Below are positions 31,772 through 39,214 of a stretch of 64,000 nucleotides of DNA, one piece after another (the stretch's first letter is position 1; the number at the start of each line of letters is the position of its first letter). The stretch lies in NCBI GenBank assembly GCA_035506195.1, contig DATJPV010000023.1, positions 1,050 through 65,049 of the forward strand, read 5' to 3'. A program made the position numbers and the translations under genes. This DNA is from Patescibacteria group bacterium. Lineage in GTDB: Bacteria; Omnitrophota; Gorgyraeia; Gygaellales; Profunditerraquicolaceae. Below the pieces are notes generated by a model. The model was not told the origin of the DNA, searched no databases, and saw nothing but the letters and a program-made list of their open reading frames with translations.

Positions 31772-32986
31772 CTATATAGAACCTATGATCGAGCCACCGG
31801 AAAGCGCGGCCAACTTAACCGGGATAAGCTGGTTTGCCAGGTTACGGTTGGCTTTAGCCAAGACCTTGAGGTAATTGCCGGTATGGCCCTCCCAGAAACC
31901 GCGCTTAGCGCAAGATCGCCCCTCAAAAAGCACCTGCACTGTCTTGCCCAAAAAACGGCTGCGATAACGCACCGAGCAATCATCGGCTACCTGATTGACG
32001 CGCTCGATGCGCCGCTGCATTTCTGACGGCTCCAGCAGCCGATACTGCCGGCGCGCAGCTTGCGTCCCGGGCCTTTGCGAAAAAGGAAACACGTGCACCT
32101 TCAACGGCATGCTTACCTTGACCGTTGCGAGGGTATGCTGAAAGCATGCCTGCGTCTCCGCGGGAAAACCCACCAGCACATCGGTAGTAATGGCGATATC
32201 CGGTACGCGCCTGCGGATCATGCGTATCAGTTGCAAAAAATCACCGGCAGTATAAGCGCGGTTCATTGCCTCCAGCACCTCATCATCTCCGCTTTGTAAA
32301 GGGATGTGCAGGTGCTTACATAGTTTTTTTGAGCTCTTTAAAAGCCGGATCAGGCCTTCGGAAACGTCATTTACTTCTATGGAGCTCAACCTGAGGCGCA
32401 GGATCCCGGGGACCTCTTCGAGCTTACGGATAAGCGCAACCAAATCCGTCCGGCCGGAAGCGTCTTTACCATAGGAGCCCAGGCAGATGCCCGTCAAGAC
32501 GATCTCCCGGAAACCGCTTGCGGCCAAGGCAGACGCCTCGGCGCATATCGCATGCGCAGGCCGGCTGCGGGATCGCCCCCTGACCAGAGGGACTTTGCAA
32601 TAAGAACAAAAATTATTGCAACCGTCTTGTATTTTCAAAAATGCGCGGGTCCTGCCGGCAAAGGTGGTAATGCCATCGGGGAAAAAGGCCTTACTAATGA
32701 TGCAACGGACGCCTTTGATGCGGGAAAGCGCGGATGCGTCTTTTTTAACCAGGCAGCCGGTAACCAGGACTCCTGCGCGCGGATTGCGGCGGATGCATTG
32801 GCGGATCACCGCCTTGGATTTGCGGTCCGCGGCGGAAGTCACGGTGCAGGTGTTGATTACACAAAAATCGGCGGGCCTGCCGTTGTCGATAACGCGAAAA
32901 CCCGCACGGATAAAACGCTCTCTAATACTTTGCGTATCATACTGGTTTGCTTTACAGCCTAAAGTGAAGAACTTAACCGTTTTCAT
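31772..32986 (-). CDS. mtaB: MiaB/MtaB-family radical SAM tRNA methylthiotransferase (MtaB-like)
   Basis: 404 aa with an N-terminal UPF0004 domain (FFTLGCKANQYDTQ), the radical SAM motif GCNNFCSYCKVPLVRGRSRS, and a TRAM-like C-terminus. The MtaB versus MiaB/RimO assignment is tentative. Confidence 0.82.
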   Translation of the reverse strand: MKTVKFFTLGCKANQYDTQSIRERFIRAGFRVIDNGRPADFCVINTCTVTSAADRKSKAVIRQCIRRNPRAGVLVTGCLVKKDASALSRIKGVRCIISKAFFPDGITTFAGRTRAFLKIQDGCNNFCSYCKVPLVRGRSRSRPAHAICAEASALAASGFREIVLTGICLGSYGKDASGRTDLVALIRKLEEVPGILRLRLSSIEVNDVSEGLIRLLKSSKKLCKHLHIPLQSGDDEVLEAMNRAYTAGDFLQLIRMIRRRVPDIAITTDVLVGFPAETQACFQHTLATVKVSMPLKVHVFPFSQRPGTQAARRQYRLLEPSEMQRRIERVNQVADDCSVRYRSRFLGKTVQVLFEGRSCAKRGFWEGHTGNYLKVLAKANRNLANQLIPVKLAALSGGSIIGSI

Positions 32987-33707
32987 ATACAGTAATGCAG
33001 GCGGCCACGCTCAAGGCTGCGGTATCGACCCGCAACACCAGTTCTCCCAGGGAAATGCCGATGAACCCGCATTCGGCGGCGCGGGCAACCTCTTGCCGGC
33101 TGAAGTCGCCTTCCGGGCCGATACATACAATGATGCTGCGGTATCTCTGCGCGCTCAAGGCGCTTTTCAGAGAACGCCGGCTGCCGAAGAGCGAGCCGAT
33201 CAATTTAAGGTCATACTCGCCGGCCAACGCAAAAACTTTTTCCATATTCATGATCGGCTCCACAACCGGGACGGTGTTGCGCTGGCTTTGCTTTGCCGCT
33301 TCCAGCGCAATCTTTTGCCAGCGGGAAAGCCTCTGGAGCTTTTTGCGTTCATCGAGCCTAACCACAACGCGTTCGCTTTCCAGCGGTATGATACGGTCCA
33401 CGCCAAGCTGGGTGAGCTTATCTACGATTTCATCCATCTTGGCCTTTTTAGGGATAGCACAGGCAATAGCCAGGCTGTACGCCTTGGCCTTACGGTGCAG
33501 AAGCCTCTCTTTTATATCCAAGAGCACGGCTTTCTTGGAAATACTGCGAATACCGCAAAGATATTCATTGCGCTCTTCGTCGAACGCCACGATCGTATCT
33601 CCTGTCTCCAGATGCAGCACGTCCTGGATATGATGGATCTGCGCTGCGTCGTGTATGCTGATCTGAGCGGATGATATTTGTTTTGACGAAACTAAACACC
33701 GGTGCAT
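32973..33707 (-). CDS. rsmE: 16S rRNA (uracil1498-N3)-methyltransferase RsmE
   Basis: 244 aa with a PUA-like N-terminus and the C-terminal knot motif GPEGDFSRQEV...ISLGELVLRVDTAAL. Confidence 0.88.
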   Translation of the reverse strand: MHRCLVSSKQISSAQISIHDAAQIHHIQDVLHLETGDTIVAFDEERNEYLCGIRSISKKAVLLDIKERLLHRKAKAYSLAIACAIPKKAKMDEIVDKLTQLGVDRIIPLESERVVVRLDERKKLQRLSRWQKIALEAAKQSQRNTVPVVEPIMNMEKVFALAGEYDLKLIGSLFGSRRSLKSALSAQRYRSIIVCIGPEGDFSRQEVARAAECGFIGISLGELVLRVDTAALSVAACITVYENG

Positions 33708-33711
33708 TCTC

Positions 33712-34368
33712 TCACCTATACGCTTTCATTATCACCTGGATCCCTAGAACTGCGATCACCAAACCGCAGCTCGTTCGCAACAGCCGCACATAGATAGCCG
33801 GCCCCCTGCGCAGCCAGGCCGGGATACATCCTGCCAGCGCTACCAGTACGATAAGCACGGATACGCACGTCCCTGCACCGAACGCCAGACCGTAGCAGAA
33901 GGCCTGTGCCCATGTTTTCGATACCAACCCCACATACGAAAGCACGGCAAACAAGGGGGCGCAAGGGGATATCCCCAGGACCAACCCCAGTAAGAGAGCG
34001 CTGGGGTAACCCTTTTGCAGAAAATGAGCTTCGAACATGCGACAGACTGGCCAGGCCAAATCCTTCCCCAGCGCCATGAGTACCCCTATTACGGCAATGA
34101 ACGCGCCTCCGGCAATCGCCGCATATCTGGCGATGCTGCCGCAGGCTCCTTCGAACACAAAGCTACCCGCAAAGAATACGGCGATACTCAAGCCCGCATA
34201 TACCGCCATGCGGCCGGCGCAAAACTGGGCATAAAAAGCCAGGGCCCCGGTAACGTTCTTGCGGGTGCCGGCAACATACGATACCAGTATCGGCCCGCAA
34301 CTGGCCGCGCAGGGACCACAGCCTAACAACAAACCGGTAACGAAAAGATTCGCAATAAGGGGGAACAC
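33712..34368 (-). CDS. CcdA/DsbD_2-like thiol-disulfide transporter family membrane protein
   Basis: 218 aa with about 6 TM helices and paired Cys-Pro membrane motifs (LGCGPCAASCGP in TM1 and GISPCAPL in TM4), as in the CcdA/DsbD core. Recognised from memory of the family only. Confidence 0.6.
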   Translation of the reverse strand: MFPLIANLFVTGLLLGCGPCAASCGPILVSYVAGTRKNVTGALAFYAQFCAGRMAVYAGLSIAVFFAGSFVFEGACGSIARYAAIAGGAFIAVIGVLMALGKDLAWPVCRMFEAHFLQKGYPSALLLGLVLGISPCAPLFAVLSYVGLVSKTWAQAFCYGLAFGAGTCVSVLIVLVALAGCIPAWLRRGPAIYVRLLRTSCGLVIAVLGIQVIMKAYR

Positions 34369-34370
34369 CG

Positions 34371-35888
34371 CTAGGGCTCTTTTTCGGAGAAGACCGTAGC
34401 CGTAAACACATAAAGCTCGGTAGCTTTTTCTTTCCAGGCGTCGGGGGAAAGCCCTGCCTTATGGCTGCAGAGCGCAGAGAGGAATTCCTCCTTTGACCAG
34501 CCGGTTTCTGCGGCCACCTGGGGCAGGAACACGCCGCTACGGTATCCGCGCTTTACCAATACGCCGTGGGTCCCGAGCTTTATTTCATCGACGGAAGAAA
34601 CCCGCTGGAGAGGAGAAAGTACCGAAATCTCTATCTCGGCATCCTTAAGCTCTGCCGGCTGAAGGGGCGGGAAACGCGGATCCCCCACTGCCGACTCGAC
34701 GGCCATATCCCTTATCGTCAGGTATAACGGCTGATTGCCGACGAGATTACCGATGCAGCCGCGCAGCTGGCCATGCTCGTGCAAGGTTACAAAGGCGCCG
34801 TGCGCCTTGGACAGGACCGGATCGTCTTCAACAAGCTCCATGCGCTTGCCGGTTTTTAAATATGCTTCTATCGAGGCGCGGGCGATCTCCAGAAGCCTTT
34901 TTTTCTGGTTAGTGTTGAGCATCTGCGCTCCCCTTTCCTGTGGTTGGTCGATGGCACAGCTGGAGTAACCCACGGTCCAGATACCCTTGATCTTTCTTCC
35001 GGTCACCACCGCGGAATTCGTGTAGTGCAGGACCTCAAGCGTTTCGTGCCCCAGCGACTTGGCCAGATCAAGCACGGTGACAACCGGAAAACCTCCGCAT
35101 AGCTGGGCTTTTTCCTCGCGCAAGCCATAGTATAATCCCAATACGTCCATATTCCTTAAATACACCAGGGTCTGCCTGTCCGCGGCCTCCGCGGCCTCAT
35201 AGTCGTAACCGTGATACATATCGCTGGAAGCGACCACCAGCACATCTTCGCGCGTGCCTATCGCCTCCTTCAAGAGACTGGCAAGCTTACGGCAGACGGC
35301 AAGAGTACAGTCCCCCATAACTATCGGCACGACCTTGAATTCGGAAAGCGACCGCTGAAGAAATGGCAGCTGTACCTCCACGGAATGCTCCTGCTCAAAT
35401 GCCGCCGGCAGAAAGGTAATCGCGCCGTCCTGATTAAGGAGCCTCTGGGCAAATTGCGCATCGACTTCGACATCGCCCAGGGGCGTCCGGAATGCCCCCT
35501 GGGGATATACAGACACCGCATCAAACCCAAAACGATGGCTTGGGCCGATCACCACGACTGTCCGGTACGGCTTGCCCTTGATCAGCTTGTACGCGTATGC
35601 AGCGGTCTGGCCGGAATATCCGTATCCGGCATGCGGACAGACCAACGCAATGACCGGGCCGGACATCGGTTTAGGCTGCGCTGCCGCAAGGAACCCGTCG
35701 ACCATCGAACGCAGCTGCTGGGGGTTATCAGGATAGAACGCGCCGGCGACGTTCGGCTCTTTGATATCGGACGCAGCGCAATTCCCCTGCGCCAAGGAAC
35801 CAAAGAGCATAGCGACAGTTACGATGATTACTTTAATTCCAGACGCCTGCGATCTTTTCTCCGCAAAATTTACATTTTCCATCGACAA
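34371..35888 (-). CDS. fused AmmeMemoRadiSam system protein B (Memo-like) :: protein A (AMMECR1 domain)
   Basis: 505 aa. The Memo part has AGAFYPDNP, CPHAGYGYSGQTAAYAY and EHSVEVQLPFLQ. The AMMECR1 part has GAFVTLHEHGQLRGCIGN. An N-terminal hydrophobic segment (IKVIIVTVAMLFGSLAQG) is present. The start is uncertain because the ORF overlaps the upstream gene by 56 nt. Confidence 0.88.
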   Translation of the reverse strand: MSMENVNFAEKRSQASGIKVIIVTVAMLFGSLAQGNCAASDIKEPNVAGAFYPDNPQQLRSMVDGFLAAAQPKPMSGPVIALVCPHAGYGYSGQTAAYAYKLIKGKPYRTVVVIGPSHRFGFDAVSVYPQGAFRTPLGDVEVDAQFAQRLLNQDGAITFLPAAFEQEHSVEVQLPFLQRSLSEFKVVPIVMGDCTLAVCRKLASLLKEAIGTREDVLVVASSDMYHGYDYEAAEAADRQTLVYLRNMDVLGLYYGLREEKAQLCGGFPVVTVLDLAKSLGHETLEVLHYTNSAVVTGRKIKGIWTVGYSSCAIDQPQERGAQMLNTNQKKRLLEIARASIEAYLKTGKRMELVEDDPVLSKAHGAFVTLHEHGQLRGCIGNLVGNQPLYLTIRDMAVESAVGDPRFPPLQPAELKDAEIEISVLSPLQRVSSVDEIKLGTHGVLVKRGYRSGVFLPQVAAETGWSKEEFLSALCSHKAGLSPDAWKEKATELYVFTATVFSEKEP

Positions 35889-36936
35889 TATTCACCTCCA
35901 GCACAATATACCCCGAACGCCTGATCAAGACCTTGTTGCAGGCAGGACAATACGTCTGCTCCGCCGGATGAGGGGATATATTTCCTATATACACGTACTT
36001 GAGCCCGCAGTCAAGCGCAATATCCCTGGCCTTTTCCAGGGCGCTTACCGGCGTCGGGTTCAACGCAGCCAGTTTATACAAAGGGAAAAAGCGGGAAAAG
36101 TGCAACGGCGTATCCGCGCCCAGGTTATCCTTGATCCAGCGGCACATGGCGATGAGTGTCTGACTGTCATCGTTAAACCCCGGGACGATCAGGTTGGTAA
36201 CCTCCAGGTGCACCCCGGCTTTTTTTATGGCTTTTAACGTCTCCAGGACCGGCCCAAGCGTAGCGTCGGAAAACCGGGCGTAGTAATCATCGCTGAATCC
36301 CTTCAGGTCGATGTTCGCCGCATCCAGATACGGAAGGAGCTGCTCCAGCGGCTCTTTGTTGATATAACCGGCGGAGTGCATCATGTTGCGTATCCCCTGC
36401 TTCTTGGCCAGCTTCGCAGTCTCCAGCATATATTCATAAAATATGGTCGGCTCAGTGTAGGTATAGGCGATGGTCGGGCTGCCCGCCTCCTTGACCCTGC
36501 GCACCAGTTCTTCGGGCGATACGTCCAGAGAACTGACCTCCTCGGGCTTGCGCTGGGAGATCTCCCAGTTTTGGCAAAATTTACAGCGCAGGTTGCACCC
36601 CGCCGTGGCGATGGAATAGGCGGCGGTGCCGGGCAGAAAATGAAACAGGGGCTTTTTTTCGATCGGATCGATGTGCACGGCGACGGGCCGGGAGTATACA
36701 AGCGTATACAGCGTGCCGTTACGGTTCTCCCTTACACCGCAGAAACCGCGCCTGCCTTCGGTAATCAGGCAGTTGCGCGGACACAAATGGCACTGGACGG
36801 CCCTGTCTTTAAGTTTCTCATAAAAAAGGGCTTCTTTGAGGGTCGTTGCGGCGGTTAACCGAGGAAGCGCAATGCAGGCCCCCAAGAGGACCCAAAGGAA
36901 GGCAAAAAGGCAAGCCGCTCTTATGGCATGCTTCAT
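35833..36936 (-). CDS. AmmeMemoRadiSam system radical SAM enzyme
   Basis: 367 aa with the family-typical N-terminal Cys cluster (VQCHLCPRNCLITEGRRGFCGVR) and the radical SAM CxxxCxxC motif (CNLRCKFCQNW). It is adjacent to the Memo/AMMECR1 gene. It carries an extra hydrophobic N-terminus, MKHAIRAACLFAFLWVLLGACIALP. Confidence 0.88.
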   Translation of the reverse strand: MKHAIRAACLFAFLWVLLGACIALPRLTAATTLKEALFYEKLKDRAVQCHLCPRNCLITEGRRGFCGVRENRNGTLYTLVYSRPVAVHIDPIEKKPLFHFLPGTAAYSIATAGCNLRCKFCQNWEISQRKPEEVSSLDVSPEELVRRVKEAGSPTIAYTYTEPTIFYEYMLETAKLAKKQGIRNMMHSAGYINKEPLEQLLPYLDAANIDLKGFSDDYYARFSDATLGPVLETLKAIKKAGVHLEVTNLIVPGFNDDSQTLIAMCRWIKDNLGADTPLHFSRFFPLYKLAALNPTPVSALEKARDIALDCGLKYVYIGNISPHPAEQTYCPACNKVLIRRSGYIVLEVNIVDGKCKFCGEKIAGVWN

Positions 36937-36951
36937 GGGCAGGGATAAAAG

Positions 36952-37024
36952 TGGAGCAGATGGGATTCGAACCCACGGCCTTCGCGATGCGAACGCGACG
37001 CTCTCCCAGCTGAGCTACTGCCCC
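36952..37024 (-). tRNA. tRNA-Ala (anticodon CGC)
   Basis: The reverse complement is GGGGCAGTAGCTCAGCTGGGAGAGCGTCGCGTTCGCATCGCGAAGGCCGTGGGTTCGAATCCCATCTGCTCCA. It carries the G3:U70 alanine identity pair and the anticodon loop TTCGCAT. Confidence 0.94.
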
Positions 37025-37133: not shown

Positions 37134-37760
37134 TTAGTTTGCCGACACCGATGGCATGCGAATGCGCGAAAAAAGCCTGATGCTCGGATTTTTGGGGCTA
37201 CCGCACGCATCAGGGTTACCGTCCGGATCCCAGCAGGCGGTTACCTGTATTTCCAGCGTATCCGCAGACGGATTCAAAACATATGTCGGCTGAGCCGGAT
37301 CGTTGCCAAAATCAGGGCTGATCTTTTTTTGAGTAATCACCTCATATACGCCCGGGGCGGTAGTAAGGTCCGGATAATACCAGACTTCGTAATTCGGCGC
37401 GGACCGGTAACGATAGGCGATCTGCCTGTCGGCAGGAGAGGCATCCCTGCGGCCATTACCGTTATAATCGATCCATACGGTCATCGTCGTGTCTCCGCCG
37501 ATGGTGGTCATTGCTATCGGAGGGTTGATCGTATCCCCTATCGCTCCGCCCCTGTCGCTTGAACCTACGATACTGCGGGTTATGTGCCCTACCAAAAATG
37601 AAGCCTCCTGCTGCACCTGGGCGCGCCGCATCGAAATGAGCAGATGACCGTAGCAAAAGCTATCGATCATCGCAAAAGCGCCGACAATGATCGACATCAG
37701 AACCAGACTTATGATAAGCTCGATAAGCGTAAGGGATTTAAGGTGTCGGAGGGGGCTCAT
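37134..37760 (-). CDS. minor (pseudo)pilin, prepilin-type N-terminus
   Basis: 208 aa starting MSPLRHLKS/LTLIELIISLVLMSIIV. It has a class III signal-like leader with Glu at +5 but Ser at -1. It is the last gene of the pilin cluster. Confidence 0.75.
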   Translation of the reverse strand: MSPLRHLKSLTLIELIISLVLMSIIVGAFAMIDSFCYGHLLISMRRAQVQQEASFLVGHITRSIVGSSDRGGAIGDTINPPIAMTTIGGDTTMTVWIDYNGNGRRDASPADRQIAYRYRSAPNYEVWYYPDLTTAPGVYEVITQKKISPDFGNDPAQPTYVLNPSADTLEIQVTACWDPDGNPDACGSPKNPSIRLFSRIRMPSVSAN

Positions 37761-38103
37761 TCCACGTAATGGTAACTTTTACTTTTTTCAAGTGGGAATT
37801 CCCGACCCAGGCGCTCACATCAGCCGTACTGTATGCCGGGGTATAGGTAATGGGGGGCACCTGCAGGGCGCCCGGGCATCCGGTACCTGCGGTGAGGCAA
37901 TTACTGCCCCAGGTAGCCTGATTGACGTCTGCCTGCAAAGGGTCCAGAAAATACCTTCCCAGCTCTCCGCCGGCGCTACGGCTGCGGCTATGGAGCAGGC
38001 TGCGCCTGCCGGTTATGAAAACGCTGGACATCCCGGCGAGCACCAGCGCAAGCAATATTGCCGCTACCAATACCTCAATCAAGCTCACGGCCCTTTTACT
38101 CAT
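37738..38103 (-). CDS. minor (pseudo)pilin, prepilin-type N-terminus
   Basis: 121 aa starting MSKRA/VSLIEVLVAAILLALVLAG. Glu is at +5 and Ala at -1. Confidence 0.75.
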   Translation of the reverse strand: MSKRAVSLIEVLVAAILLALVLAGMSSVFITGRRSLLHSRSRSAGGELGRYFLDPLQADVNQATWGSNCLTAGTGCPGALQVPPITYTPAYSTADVSAWVGNSHLKKVKVTITWNEPPPTP

Positions 38104-38124
38104 ACAGAAACTTAAAAGAAGCCC

Positions 38125-38523
38125 TTACCATGACCCGTCGCAGGCATACGGCTCTTCCGTGGAAGCGCTTTGATTCGTGCACCAGACATGGTTGGTTTTC
38201 GTAACGCGCTGCGCCTTACCGATAAAGGCGTTAGGGGAAGTAGTAACGTTATCGACTTTATAATTCCATCGCGATCCCGCCTGCGGCAACATAAGGTTAA
38301 GCAGGGAGTTGACCGTAGTGTTGTCGGCGGCGGCGACATAAGCCCCGATTTCCATTTTGTAGATTCTTTCAGCCGACTGGATAAGCTTCAAATTGGCGAT
38401 GGCCTCTTTATCCAAGACAGCTTCTCGGTGCGCGGTATATTGGGCTACGCCGATAGTAGCCAAGACACCGATAATGACAAGCACTACCATTGTTTCCATT
38501 AAGGTGAAGCCCTTAATCTTCAT
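38125..38523 (-). CDS. prepilin-type N-terminal cleavage/methylation domain protein (pilin/GspG-like)
   Basis: 132 aa starting MKIKG/FTLMETMVVLVIIGVLATIGV, the canonical G/FTLxE motif. Confidence 0.88.
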   Translation of the reverse strand: MKIKGFTLMETMVVLVIIGVLATIGVAQYTAHREAVLDKEAIANLKLIQSAERIYKMEIGAYVAAADNTTVNSLLNLMLPQAGSRWNYKVDNVTTSPNAFIGKAQRVTKTNHVWCTNQSASTEEPYACDGSW

Positions 38524-38525
38524 AT

Positions 38526-38575
38526 AAAAAAATGACAGTCCTTATTGCGTGCCTACGCACGCAATAAGGACTGTC
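38526..38575 (-). terminator. strong intrinsic terminator immediately after the major pilin gene
   Basis: A perfect 19-bp stem pairs gacagtccttattgcgtgc (38534-38552) with gcacgcaataaggactgtc (38557-38575). The loop is 4 nt, and the hairpin is followed on the minus-strand RNA by AUUUUUUUA. Confidence 0.85.
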
Positions 38576-38595
38576 TCCGAGCTTGCACAAAACAA

Positions 38596-39024
38596 TTAAT
38601 AACCGCCAGATCCTCCCCACGTATCAACACCCGTGCTCAGGACCGATGTCAACTGGACGTCTCCAGCAGTTGATGCCTGCGGGAGTTTTCCACCAGCTGT
38701 ACAACGTGTTGCTACGCCGGTAACGTTTGTTGCAGCCGAAGTTACCGAATAGCTGAACCAATGCGAGGCGCGGCAAGCGCTGGGAATCTGATCGGCATTG
38801 GTACCGATATGGGCAGTAGAAGCCCCGGTTCCAAAACTGGCGGTGCTACCGAATTCCAAATAATATCCCGCCGATAGCTTCCTGATGTCGCCCAAAATAG
38901 CCTTGGCTTCTGCACCACGAGATTTCTCGATCATTCTGGCATATTGCGTGAAACCGAGGATCGCCAACACGCCCAAAATGATAATAACTACGATCAACTC
39001 GAGCAACGTAAAACCTTTTTTCAT
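38596..39024 (-). CDS. major type IV pilin / pseudopilin
   Basis: It starts MKKG/FTLLELIVVIIILGVLAILG followed by YARMIEKSRGAEAKAILGDIR, and has two Cys in the C-terminal half. I set the start at ATG 39024, which sits behind the strong SD AAGGAGGAG. The track start at 39072 adds 16 non-pilin residues. Confidence 0.9.
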   Translation of the reverse strand: MKKGFTLLELIVVIIILGVLAILGFTQYARMIEKSRGAEAKAILGDIRKLSAGYYLEFGSTASFGTGASTAHIGTNADQIPSACRASHWFSYSVTSAATNVTGVATRCTAGGKLPQASTAGDVQLTSVLSTGVDTWGGSGGY

Positions 39025-39167
39025 GTTGTCTCCTCCTTTTTTATTATTAAACCTGTGATTCATTTGATTCATTTTTTGTTTCTCGGAAAATTTTGATTTC
39101 GGTTATAGATGTGCTGCCTGTATCTATAGAGCCTGCCTTTACCACCCCCTTTCATGCTTCTGTTCAA

Positions 39168-39196
39168 ACTATATCACAAAATACCAATGCTGTCAA
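39168..39196 (-). promoter_or_regulatory. sigma70 promoter with extended -10 for the major pilin gene
   Basis: The minus strand reads TTGACA, then a 17-nt spacer ending in TGa, then TATAGT. It lies directly downstream of the pilC stop and about 140 nt upstream of the pilin ATG. Confidence 0.65.
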
Positions 39197-39214
39197 CAAG
39201 TTAGCAAAGAATTA

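Follow-up and report, generated by a model that had tools for sequence, protein, structure and literature searches.

We analyzed a 64,000-nucleotide (nt) stretch of contig DATJPV010000023.1 (positions 1,050 to 65,049 of the forward strand; assembly GCA_035506195.1), which we call the window. Three tightly packed, co-directional genes on its minus strand (33712-36936) encode a radical S-adenosylmethionine (SAM) enzyme, a fusion of Memo and AMMECR1 domains, and a DsbD_2 protein with six transmembrane (TM) helices. We propose, from sequence comparisons, that this locus probably specifies an extracytoplasmic (periplasmic) AmmeMemoRadiSam system with a transmembrane supply of reductant. The parts of the proposal differ in strength: the fusion is very probably exported, export of the radical SAM domain is probable with less assurance, a thiol-reductant role for the DsbD_2 protein is a tenable assignment that could easily be wrong, and an electron-relay or metal role for it is less probable still. 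The three-gene AmmeMemoRadiSam system is already known and its function is unsolved. Radical SAM enzymes are treated as strictly cytoplasmic because they need SAM, a low-potential reductant, and cytoplasmic Fe–S assembly.

The window locus matches the canonical system in that the TIGR04335, TIGR04336, and TIGR04337 models all score far above their cutoffs (Table 1), the genes adjoin, and the CxxxCxxC, CxxCxxxC, and GCIG motifs are intact. It differs in the A–B fusion, in the predicted export signals on both proteins, and in the presence of a fourth component, DsbD_2. The first-pass annotation had placed Memo-like and AMMECR1 domains in a single 505-residue open reading frame (ORF), and both domain models bear this out; such fusions were already noted in 2007 (PMC2034487). 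PflA is the nearest characterized radical SAM family, but the core likeness is weak (TIGR02493, 61 bits versus a cutoff of 231.75), PflA is cytoplasmic, and no glycyl-radical enzyme partner is present. In public records the three proteins are named 'AmmeMemoRadiSam system radical SAM enzyme', 'protein B', and 'sulfite exporter TauE/SafE family protein'.

The radical SAM enzyme begins with residues that the family model does not cover. Alignment to the TIGR04337 model starts at residue 38, in agreement with the earlier description of about 30 extra residues ahead of the family-typical VQCHLCPRNC start. Among the 120 best homologues (64–100% identical), 106 had a scorable extension, and its hydrophobic character was kept in 104. 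The layout is M-K/R-x-x-x-K/R, then an uncharged run (median 23 residues), and then LKEALFY...VQCxLCPxxC. A position logo of the c-region showed Pro at -5 in 69 of 106 sequences, L/I/S/A at -3 in 98, and A/T/S/G at -1 in 101, followed by Q/E/D, and from this logo cleavage of the window enzyme is predicted between LTA29 and A30. Net charge was +1.9 on the N-terminal flank of the hydrophobic run and +0.3 on the C-terminal flank, the N-flank being the more positive in 82 of 104 homologues. Only one of the 106 Omnitrophota homologues has an RR pair, and the hydrophobic (h-) region is strongly hydrophobic in the manner of Sec signals.

The fusion protein has an extension of its own. The first-pass annotation had described a charged n-region followed by an h-region at the start of the 505-residue ORF, and 103 of 113 fusion homologues retain, behind a K/R-rich n-region, a hydrophobic run of 12 or more residues. 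This run ends most often in CFAQ or SFAQ, directly ahead of DIKQPNVAGAFYP (DIKQPNVAG). Flank charges were +2.0 on the N side versus -1.1 on the C side, and 101 of 103 homologues have the more positive charge on the N side. A more positive N-flank predicts an N-in, C-out orientation.

Both enzymes thus show the three features by which we scored Sec signals: a positive n-region, a hydrophobic h-region, and small residues at -3 and -1. As a specificity control, we applied the same heuristic to all 54 minus-strand ORFs of the window, and it flagged 16. No recognizable housekeeping ORF was among them (RpoB/C, ribosomal proteins, RecA, AlaRS, UvrA, RsmE, and MtaB were unflagged), and the other flagged ORFs were pilins, SecD, ExbB, a lipoprotein, and likely envelope proteins, as judged by eye or from Pfam matches at syntenic loci, some being unannotated. 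The two flagged enzymes belong to families that are normally regarded as cytoplasmic. For both, the extensions are conserved in homologues that are merely 61–75% identical and are therefore selected features rather than miscalled starts. The h-region sequence varies while charge, hydrophobicity, and the -3/-1 pattern persist, and such free drift with kept character is the usual course of signal-peptide evolution.

The extensions look like cleavable signals, so the enzymes are more likely to be soluble in the periplasm than tethered to the membrane. The earlier proposal of a membrane-tethered, possibly periplasm-facing system is therefore retained for its orientation, which the predicted export signals favor, and not for the tethering. 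We also considered lipoprotein status for both enzymes and do not claim it: LLGA-C in the window radical SAM enzyme fits the lipobox [LVI][ASTVI][GAS]C, and conforming motifs occur in about half of its homologues (49/104) and in ~14% of the fusion homologues (16/113).

Natural triple fusions bear on whether the domains act in the same compartment. P0198, a protein that joins radical SAM, Memo, and AMMECR1 domains, occurs on six contigs, and its sole signal is the N-terminal one of radical SAM type. The three contigs shown derive from three samples and agree in gene context. The internal signal has been excised exactly, giving the junction ...GEKIAGVW-DYIKQPNAAGAFYPD, and the gene is followed by DsbD_2. 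One N-terminal signal with the internal one deleted implies that all three domains share one compartment. Another cluster contains a further triple fusion, P0262, which has a TM segment at its N-terminus.

Export signals extend well beyond the Omnitrophota. A search with the radical SAM enzyme returned 9300 relatives, counting one representative per 50%-identity cluster. Among the best 150 of these, ~28 carry a 40–70-residue extension with a canonical twin-arginine (Tat) motif (DRRRFLKVCGLSALAAG, SRRDFIKKLL), and ~70 have no extension, begin at MKEALFY, and are presumably cytoplasmic. We then used five Tat-type sequences as seeds for a genome scan and applied local hidden Markov models (HMMs) to all ORFs of the resulting 80 loci. 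These span more than ten phyla and include members of Planctomycetota, Verrucomicrobia, Chloroflexota/Anaerolineae, Syntrophales, Acidobacteriota, Bacteroidales, Fibrobacteres, Latescibacterota, Elusimicrobia, Omnitrophota, and two Euryarchaeota. The radical SAM signal was RRxFL in 56 loci, a KR variant in 9 (Bacteroidales), and Sec-like in 9. In 28 loci the adjoining Memo–AMMECR1 fusion has its own hydrophobic N-terminal signal segment, and several of these segments end in a lipobox-like Cys (LALSSLLISAC ahead of AAPT in Anaerolineae; MKRITILLIFSAFFLRLPAQ in Bacteroidales). Taken together, these signals and fused partners indicate that export with an A–B fusion is a widespread subclass and not a peculiarity of the window locus. 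Cofactor-loaded proteins are, by the accepted view, exported through Tat; a twin arginine, which the RRxFL-bearing enzymes have, is missing from the window enzyme and from its Omnitrophota relatives. By its predicted signals, the window represents the Omnitrophota form of the exported subclass, with a radical SAM signal that is Sec-type rather than Tat-type.

In a crude clustering of 242 radical SAM domains, of which ~80 start directly at the domain, nearest neighbors tended to share a signal type (Sec–Sec in 32 of 35 cases, Tat–Tat in 74 of 86). No clean single origin of export emerged from these 242 domains, and exported and cytoplasmic forms were interleaved at depth. One locus comes from a cultured organism, Mangrovibacterium marinum DSM 28823, and has a radical SAM gene with a TKRAFLK N-terminus and a gene for a SpeE-like membrane protein; the fetched sequence ends before the N-terminus of its Memo–AMMECR1 pair.

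Other features of the 80 genome loci were recorded. In 39, a polytopic membrane protein of 700–800 residues adjoins the exported radical SAM gene and contains a central spermidine-synthase-like domain (PF01564; NF002956, NF037959 'fused MFS/spermidine synthase'). Examples, from the set numbered L005–L084, are L027:8969-11377, L064:7856-9943 (minus strand), L072:9982-12129 (minus strand), and L032:10132-12530. Crude TM counting placed the spermidine-synthase-like domain outside the cytoplasm in three of four cases. Neither the window nor the Omnitrophota clade with DsbD_2 has this protein. Between the Tat signal and the radical SAM domain, 27 loci (L012, L016, L018, L020–L025, L058, L074, and others) from Anaerolineae, Syntrophales, Acidobacteriota, and Fibrobacteres have a CxxCH motif, often with YCH after it; this motif could serve to attach haem c or to bind an additional metal. 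In two loci (L057:8999-10051, 'uncultured bacterium', and L050:2477-3556, Latescibacterota), the gene after a Sec-type radical SAM paralogue encodes, in place of Memo–AMMECR1, a DUF362 protein with two 4Fe–4S ferredoxin motifs.

Additional evidence comes from relatives in which the radical SAM domain is fused to membrane or electron-transfer modules. DsbD_2 is joined to radical SAM in P0255, the second-best match, and in P0268, and P0272 combines DsbD_2, FMN_bind, two Fer4_5 domains, and radical SAM. The best match, P0254 (56% identity), and P0257 consist of a signal anchor, FMN_bind, polytopic Fer4_5 with CxxxCP loops, a final TM helix, and radical SAM. In P0260 and P0267 a signal, FMN_bind, and radical SAM succeed one another without an intervening TM helix. 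An (S/T)GAT motif, the flavinylation site of extracytoplasmic RnfG/NqrC/NosR-type domains, is present in the FMN_bind domains of these fusions. The pairing of FMN_bind with Fer4_5 is the layout of NosR/NapH, which feeds periplasmic enzymes. We counted seven TM helices in P0254, and with its K/R-rich CxxxCP loops facing inward the radical SAM domain lies outside, on the same side as FMN_bind. These architectures argue independently that this radical SAM branch works outside the cytoplasm, and they suggest that an exported radical SAM enzyme of this branch would get its reducing power through a dedicated membrane module. The window locus has only DsbD_2, in contrast to the NosR/NapH-type modules of P0254, P0257, and P0272; because relatives are fused to such a module, the principle of feeding electrons to an exported redox enzyme applies to the family. 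Two further architectures place a CBM_11 carbohydrate-binding module (P0265) or beta-propeller repeats (P0261) ahead of the radical SAM domain and hint at an extracellular glycan or surface substrate.

The third protein was described in the first-pass annotation as a six-TM, CcdA/DsbD_2-like product encoded 2 nt downstream, with cysteine motifs in its membrane helices, and its coordinates and PF13386 score agree with this description. It resembles CcdA and DsbD-beta transporters (PDB 5vkv) in its six TM helices, its Pfam DsbD_2 membership, and the proline-adjacent cysteines of TM1 and TM4 that characterize CcdA/DsbD (GPC20xxSC24GP and SPC136AP). It differs in having CxxxC in TM1, an extra invariant cysteine in TM6, a score for the classical DsbD_TM model (PF02683) of 18.3 bits, below the cutoff of 27.1, and a linkage that is with a radical SAM system and not with cytochrome c maturation. 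Four cysteines are invariant across 11 DsbD_2 sequences: C20 and C24 (GPCxxSCGP, TM1), C136 (PCAP, TM4), and C201 (TM6). The DsbD_2 domains fused to radical SAM share the TM1 CxxxC, TM4 C-P, GR..Y, and F.GT motifs with those of the clade; the TM6 cysteine is missing from P0268 and P0272.

The fold predicted for the DsbD_2 protein is tentatively CcdA-like. A Foldseek search with its AlphaFold model returned nothing significant, and no PDB entry matched by sequence; CcdA was the best and longest structural match of this low-confidence model, with 186 aligned residues versus ~140 for others. K/R residues counted by hand in the loops place both termini outside, in agreement with P0272, in which the C-terminus of DsbD_2 runs straight into the FMN_bind domain. 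The public name, TauE/SafE sulfite exporter, was considered and dropped: no TauE family model matched at E <= 0.01, and the matches were DsbD_2, DsbD_TM, and, weakly, ArsG (35.5 bits versus a cutoff of 200). No thioredoxin-like gene was seen in the operon or, by eye, in the ORF list of the window, with no dedicated thioredoxin-fold search made.

The DsbD_2 gene is closely linked to the system in other genomes. A metagenome scan seeded with DsbD_2 returned 80 loci, of which 72 had at least 300 nt and 28 at least 3.4 kb of upstream sequence. In all 72, DsbD_2 comes right after the fusion, with a median of 20 nt from the end of the AMMECR1 domain to the DsbD_2 domain, and 26 of the 28 also have the radical SAM gene. 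Homologues of this DsbD_2 protein (37–75% identical) were found solely in AmmeMemoRadiSam context. Among looked-up loci, DsbD_2 directly follows the fusion in 6 of 7 distinct cases, and the order radical SAM, fusion, DsbD_2, RsmE, MtaB was found in 4 of 4 look-ups made from DsbD_2 or P0198 and in 3 of 4 made from fusion homologues. The linkage that the first-pass annotation had asked about is therefore present elsewhere.

The exceptions and distant cases are also relevant. L171 (3435-7003) keeps tRNA-Ala, the fusion, RsmE, and MtaB and lacks both radical SAM and DsbD_2. In a Saganbacteria locus (L064) and in an unclassified bacterium (L032), a DsbD_2 homologue is located a few kb away from a radical SAM paralogue, and RsmE is missing there. 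L128 (5803-7955) and L132 (3348-5658) keep the fusion and DsbD_2 with no radical SAM gene upstream; in L128 that place is taken by integrase- or transposase-like ORFs and a tRNA-Lys. Five loci (L002, 10181-11002; L087; L116; L127; L150) have a stand-alone Memo paralogue of ~273 residues, without a signal peptide, 4–6 kb downstream. That DsbD_2 accompanies only Sec-type radical SAM enzymes is suggestive, as no clearly Tat-type locus has one, but we do not claim it. The idea is confounded because the Saganbacteria enzyme starts MRRLFLL and because other Sec-type Omnitrophota loci lack DsbD_2.

In the mechanism that we envisage, the overlapping enzyme genes would probably be translationally coupled, and both enzymes would cross the inner membrane and be released on its periplasmic side or, in some lineages, be lipid-anchored. 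The six-TM protein of putative CcdA fold, with its cysteines in TM1 (CxxxC) and TM4 (PC), would take reducing equivalents out of the cytoplasm and pass them to the two enzymes. Most likely it would serve to keep their many cysteines (13 in the mature radical SAM enzyme plus that of the AMMECR1 GCIG motif) reduced in an oxidizing periplasm. The substrate would be an envelope-located molecule, not cytoplasmic RNA.

Several considerations weigh against this proposal. Our signal-peptide calls are heuristic, based on statistics and a position logo for ~100 homologues per enzyme. Flank charges do not favor N-in for 22 of the 104 radical SAM homologues, the radical SAM h-region is long and could remain as an uncleaved anchor, and the window enzyme (MKHAIRAAC) has no twin-arginine motif. 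If this Fe–S enzyme is exported unfolded by Sec, we know of no route for cluster insertion outside the cytoplasm and, to our knowledge, there is no source of periplasmic SAM. The window locus encodes no low-potential reductant, having no FMN_bind or Fer4_5 gene, and thiol/disulfide chemistry is too oxidizing to reduce a radical SAM [4Fe–4S] cluster. The earlier suggestion that the system is supplied with reductant thus survives in part: DsbD_2 linkage and the domain fusions support it, whereas a thiol shuttle alone cannot explain cluster reduction. As for DsbD_2 itself, confidence in the AlphaFold model is low (mean predicted local distance difference test score 69), and the DsbD_2 domains fused to radical SAM are of a different subfamily, only one reaching 17 bits on the clade HMM. 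Seven other loci of Sec-type Omnitrophota radical SAM paralogues have no DsbD_2 gene within 8 kb. Finally, the block from tRNA-Ala to MtaB is frozen in the Omnitrophota clade, and adjacency within it is therefore weak functional evidence.

The requirements of radical SAM chemistry speak for an alternative in which the hydrophobic N-termini are anchors that hold the catalytic domains on the cytoplasmic face (N-out, C-in, or as an in-plane helix). A system placed at the membrane in this way, acting for example on lipid, would keep its access to SAM, ferredoxin, and Fe–S assembly, all known radical SAM requirements being cytoplasmic. An uncharged run of median 23 residues can span a membrane, the flank charges just mentioned are indecisive for a minority of radical SAM homologues, and the operon neighbors RsmE and MtaB are cytoplasmic RNA-modifying enzymes; an earlier prediction had AMMECR1 modifying RNA bases (PMC2034487). 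We nevertheless consider cytoplasmic-face anchoring rather improbable. A plain anchor has no need of the conserved Pro(-5), L/I(-3), A/T/S(-1) pattern, and the fusion extension looks like a textbook cleavable signal with a nearly uniform charge bias. Relatives bear twin-arginine signals and have fusion partners with signal segments, some ending in a lipobox-like Cys, and the P0260 fusion of FMN_bind without an intervening TM helix and the TM count of P0254 place the radical SAM domain outside. A start codon taken too far upstream, as the source of the extensions, is refuted by the homologue alignments. The radical SAM ATG does lack a Shine–Dalgarno sequence and lies 14 nt past the end of tRNA-Ala(CGC), and a TTG at codon 18 is the only other canonical start ahead of the conserved domain. 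There is, however, no canonical start between codon 22 and that domain, and length and character of the extension are kept in ~100 radical SAM homologues at 65–75% identity, as they are in homologues of the fusion. The alignments, which the first-pass annotation had named as a check, thus support no downstream start for either protein.

If the enzymes are exported, the DsbD_2 protein might still be something other than a thiol shuttle: an electron relay like NqrD/E and RnfA/E, with a metal or Fe–S center bound by its intramembrane cysteines, or a metal (iron) exporter used to mature the Sec-exported apo-enzyme. We judge this unlikely, though less so than cytoplasmic anchoring. Four invariant cysteines in the Omnitrophota subfamily exceed the two that CcdA needs, the LysE superfamily includes metal transporters, the radical SAM cluster needs a lower potential than thiols offer, and other lineages fuse FMN_bind and Fer4_5 electron-transfer modules to the enzyme. 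Against this stand the structural match to CcdA, with the caveat of the low-confidence model, and the proline-flanked TM1 and TM4 cysteines, which are the CcdA/DsbD hallmark. P0272, moreover, contains DsbD_2 as well as FMN_bind/Fer4_5, suggesting separate jobs, and the TM6 cysteine is dispensed with in P0268 and P0272. DsbD_2 could also be a passenger in the frozen block, serving general periplasmic redox homeostasis or cytochrome c maturation. All 55 loci whose downstream sequence reaches 600 nt or more have RsmE there, and in 53 of them it follows directly, at a distance of no more than 400 nt. Of 19 related loci checked, 18 have tRNA-Ala upstream, intergenic distances are tiny throughout the block, RsmE and MtaB included, and a DsbD_2 gene is missing from 78 of the 80 genome loci that hold exported radical SAM relatives. 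This explanation is nonetheless very improbable, as the DsbD_2 subfamily stands beside a system gene in all 72 metagenomic loci and three representative clusters have DsbD_2 domains joined to radical SAM. The loss of DsbD_2 from L171, where RsmE and MtaB are kept, the L064 and L032 neighborhoods without RsmE, and the domain fusions together break the tie left by adjacency. On balance we retain a periplasmic system with transmembrane reductant supply as the probable interpretation.

Table 1. Positions of the locus components, their motifs, and flanking genes in the window.
Feature	Position	Strand	Details
AmmeMemoRadiSam radical SAM enzyme	35833..36936	-	367 aa; TIGR04337 384.5 bits (cutoff 220), PF04055 87.8 bits
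Predicted Sec-type signal peptide, radical SAM enzyme	36850..36936	-	residues 1-29, MKHAIRAACLFAFLWVLLGACIALPRLTA; conserved in homologues
N-terminal Cys motif CHLCPRNC	36769..36792	-	residues 49-56; family-typical
Radical SAM cluster motif CNLRCKFC (CxxxCxxC)	36574..36597	-	residues 114-121; intact as in cytoplasmic relatives
Dual-coding overlap of the two enzyme genes	35833..35888	-	sequence reading
Memo-AMMECR1 (B-A) fusion	34371..35888	-	505 aa from TTG 35888 / 503 aa from ATG 35882
Predicted signal peptide, fusion	35772..35888	-	residues 1-39; cleavage between NCAA and SD
Memo domain	34953..35762	-	residues 43-312; TIGR04336 258.6 bits (cutoff 26), PF01875
AMMECR1 domain	34389..34898	-	residues 331-500; TIGR04335 184.8 bits (cutoff 99), PF01871
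AMMECR1 conserved GCIG cysteine	34749-34760	-	intact
DsbD_2 / CcdA-like 6-TM protein	33712..34368	-	218 aa, GTG start; PF13386 54.9 bits (cutoff 24.9)
TM1 motif GCGPCAASCGP	34291..34323	-	invariant C20 and C24; alignments
TM4 motif ISPCAPL	33952..33972	-	invariant C136; alignments
RsmE	32973-33707	-	downstream, conserved synteny
MtaB-like radical SAM methylthiotransferase	31772-32986	-	downstream, conserved synteny
tRNA-Ala(CGC)	36951..37024	-	conserved upstream neighbor; ARAGORN; Rfam 67.6 bits

The genes of the locus are packed with little or no spacing. The 505-residue fusion ORF opens with TTG, with GGAGG 6 nt upstream; the start at its first ATG matches the public annotation. The overlap with the radical SAM gene is 56 nt from the TTG and 50 nt from the ATG, correcting the first-pass annotation, which had given 56 nt for the first ATG. 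Within the overlap, the n-region of the fusion signal (MENVNFAEKR...) uses the codons for the radical SAM C-terminal CKFCGEKIAGVW in a second frame. The alignment of fusion homologues retains a MENxNFAEKK motif because the same bases also encode this conserved C-terminal motif. The fusion stop codon is separated from the DsbD_2 GTG by 2 nt and DsbD_2 from RsmE by 4 nt, and the MtaB-like gene overlaps RsmE by 14 nt. RsmE and the MtaB-like protein are probably not part of the AmmeMemoRadiSam system. A scan for promoters and terminators found nothing beyond chance level, Rfam models detected tRNA only and no SAM riboswitch, and the window holds no second copy of Memo, AMMECR1, or DsbD_2.

Some public gene calls (P0185, P0188, P0198) run through tRNA-Ala(CGC), producing the spurious N-terminus MGERYIRIVEV(S/A)GSNP. 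Upstream of the tRNA, 37134-46372 contains a cluster that resembles a type IV pilus or type II secretion system, and related contigs keep it in synteny with the operon. Its genes, whose identities are guesses from the size and order of the ORFs, include at least four of prepilin type, others like GspF and GspE, and possibly counterparts of secretin and PilM/N/O. Public proteins 100% identical to those of the locus are labeled 'Patescibacteria group bacterium'. All named close homologues are from Candidatus Omnitrophota, and the public record is therefore probably mislabeled or misbinned.

Our literature search, which did not cover the main Memo-context comparison, found no report of a periplasmic, exported, or secreted radical SAM enzyme or of an exported AmmeMemoRadiSam system, and nothing relevant for AMMECR1 with periplasm or Omnitrophota with twin-arginine. 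A bolder version of our proposal is that radical SAM chemistry itself takes place outside the cytoplasm, the Omnitrophota apo-enzyme being exported unfolded by Sec, matured in the periplasm, and fed by the multi-cysteine CcdA-fold protein. We think this improbable. If true, it would imply extracytoplasmic Fe–S assembly and a periplasmic SAM supply, with Memo and AMMECR1 acting on a cell-envelope substrate, and the CcdA-fold protein would provide electrons, reduced cysteines, or iron.

Within this radical SAM family, a large branch that reaches across many phyla bears export signals and has membrane modules of its own (DsbD_2 or FMN_bind/Fer4_5). The cultured Mangrovibacterium marinum DSM 28823 is an organism in which the predictions become testable. 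If they are true, radical SAM chemistry reaches the periplasm, raising questions of cofactor and SAM supply. AMMECR1 was once predicted to modify RNA bases (PMC2034487); export would argue against such an activity, at least in this subclass, and an envelope substrate would fit better. Memo and AMMECR1 are both human disease genes, and what they do would likewise be constrained, with the substrate in these lineages located in the envelope.

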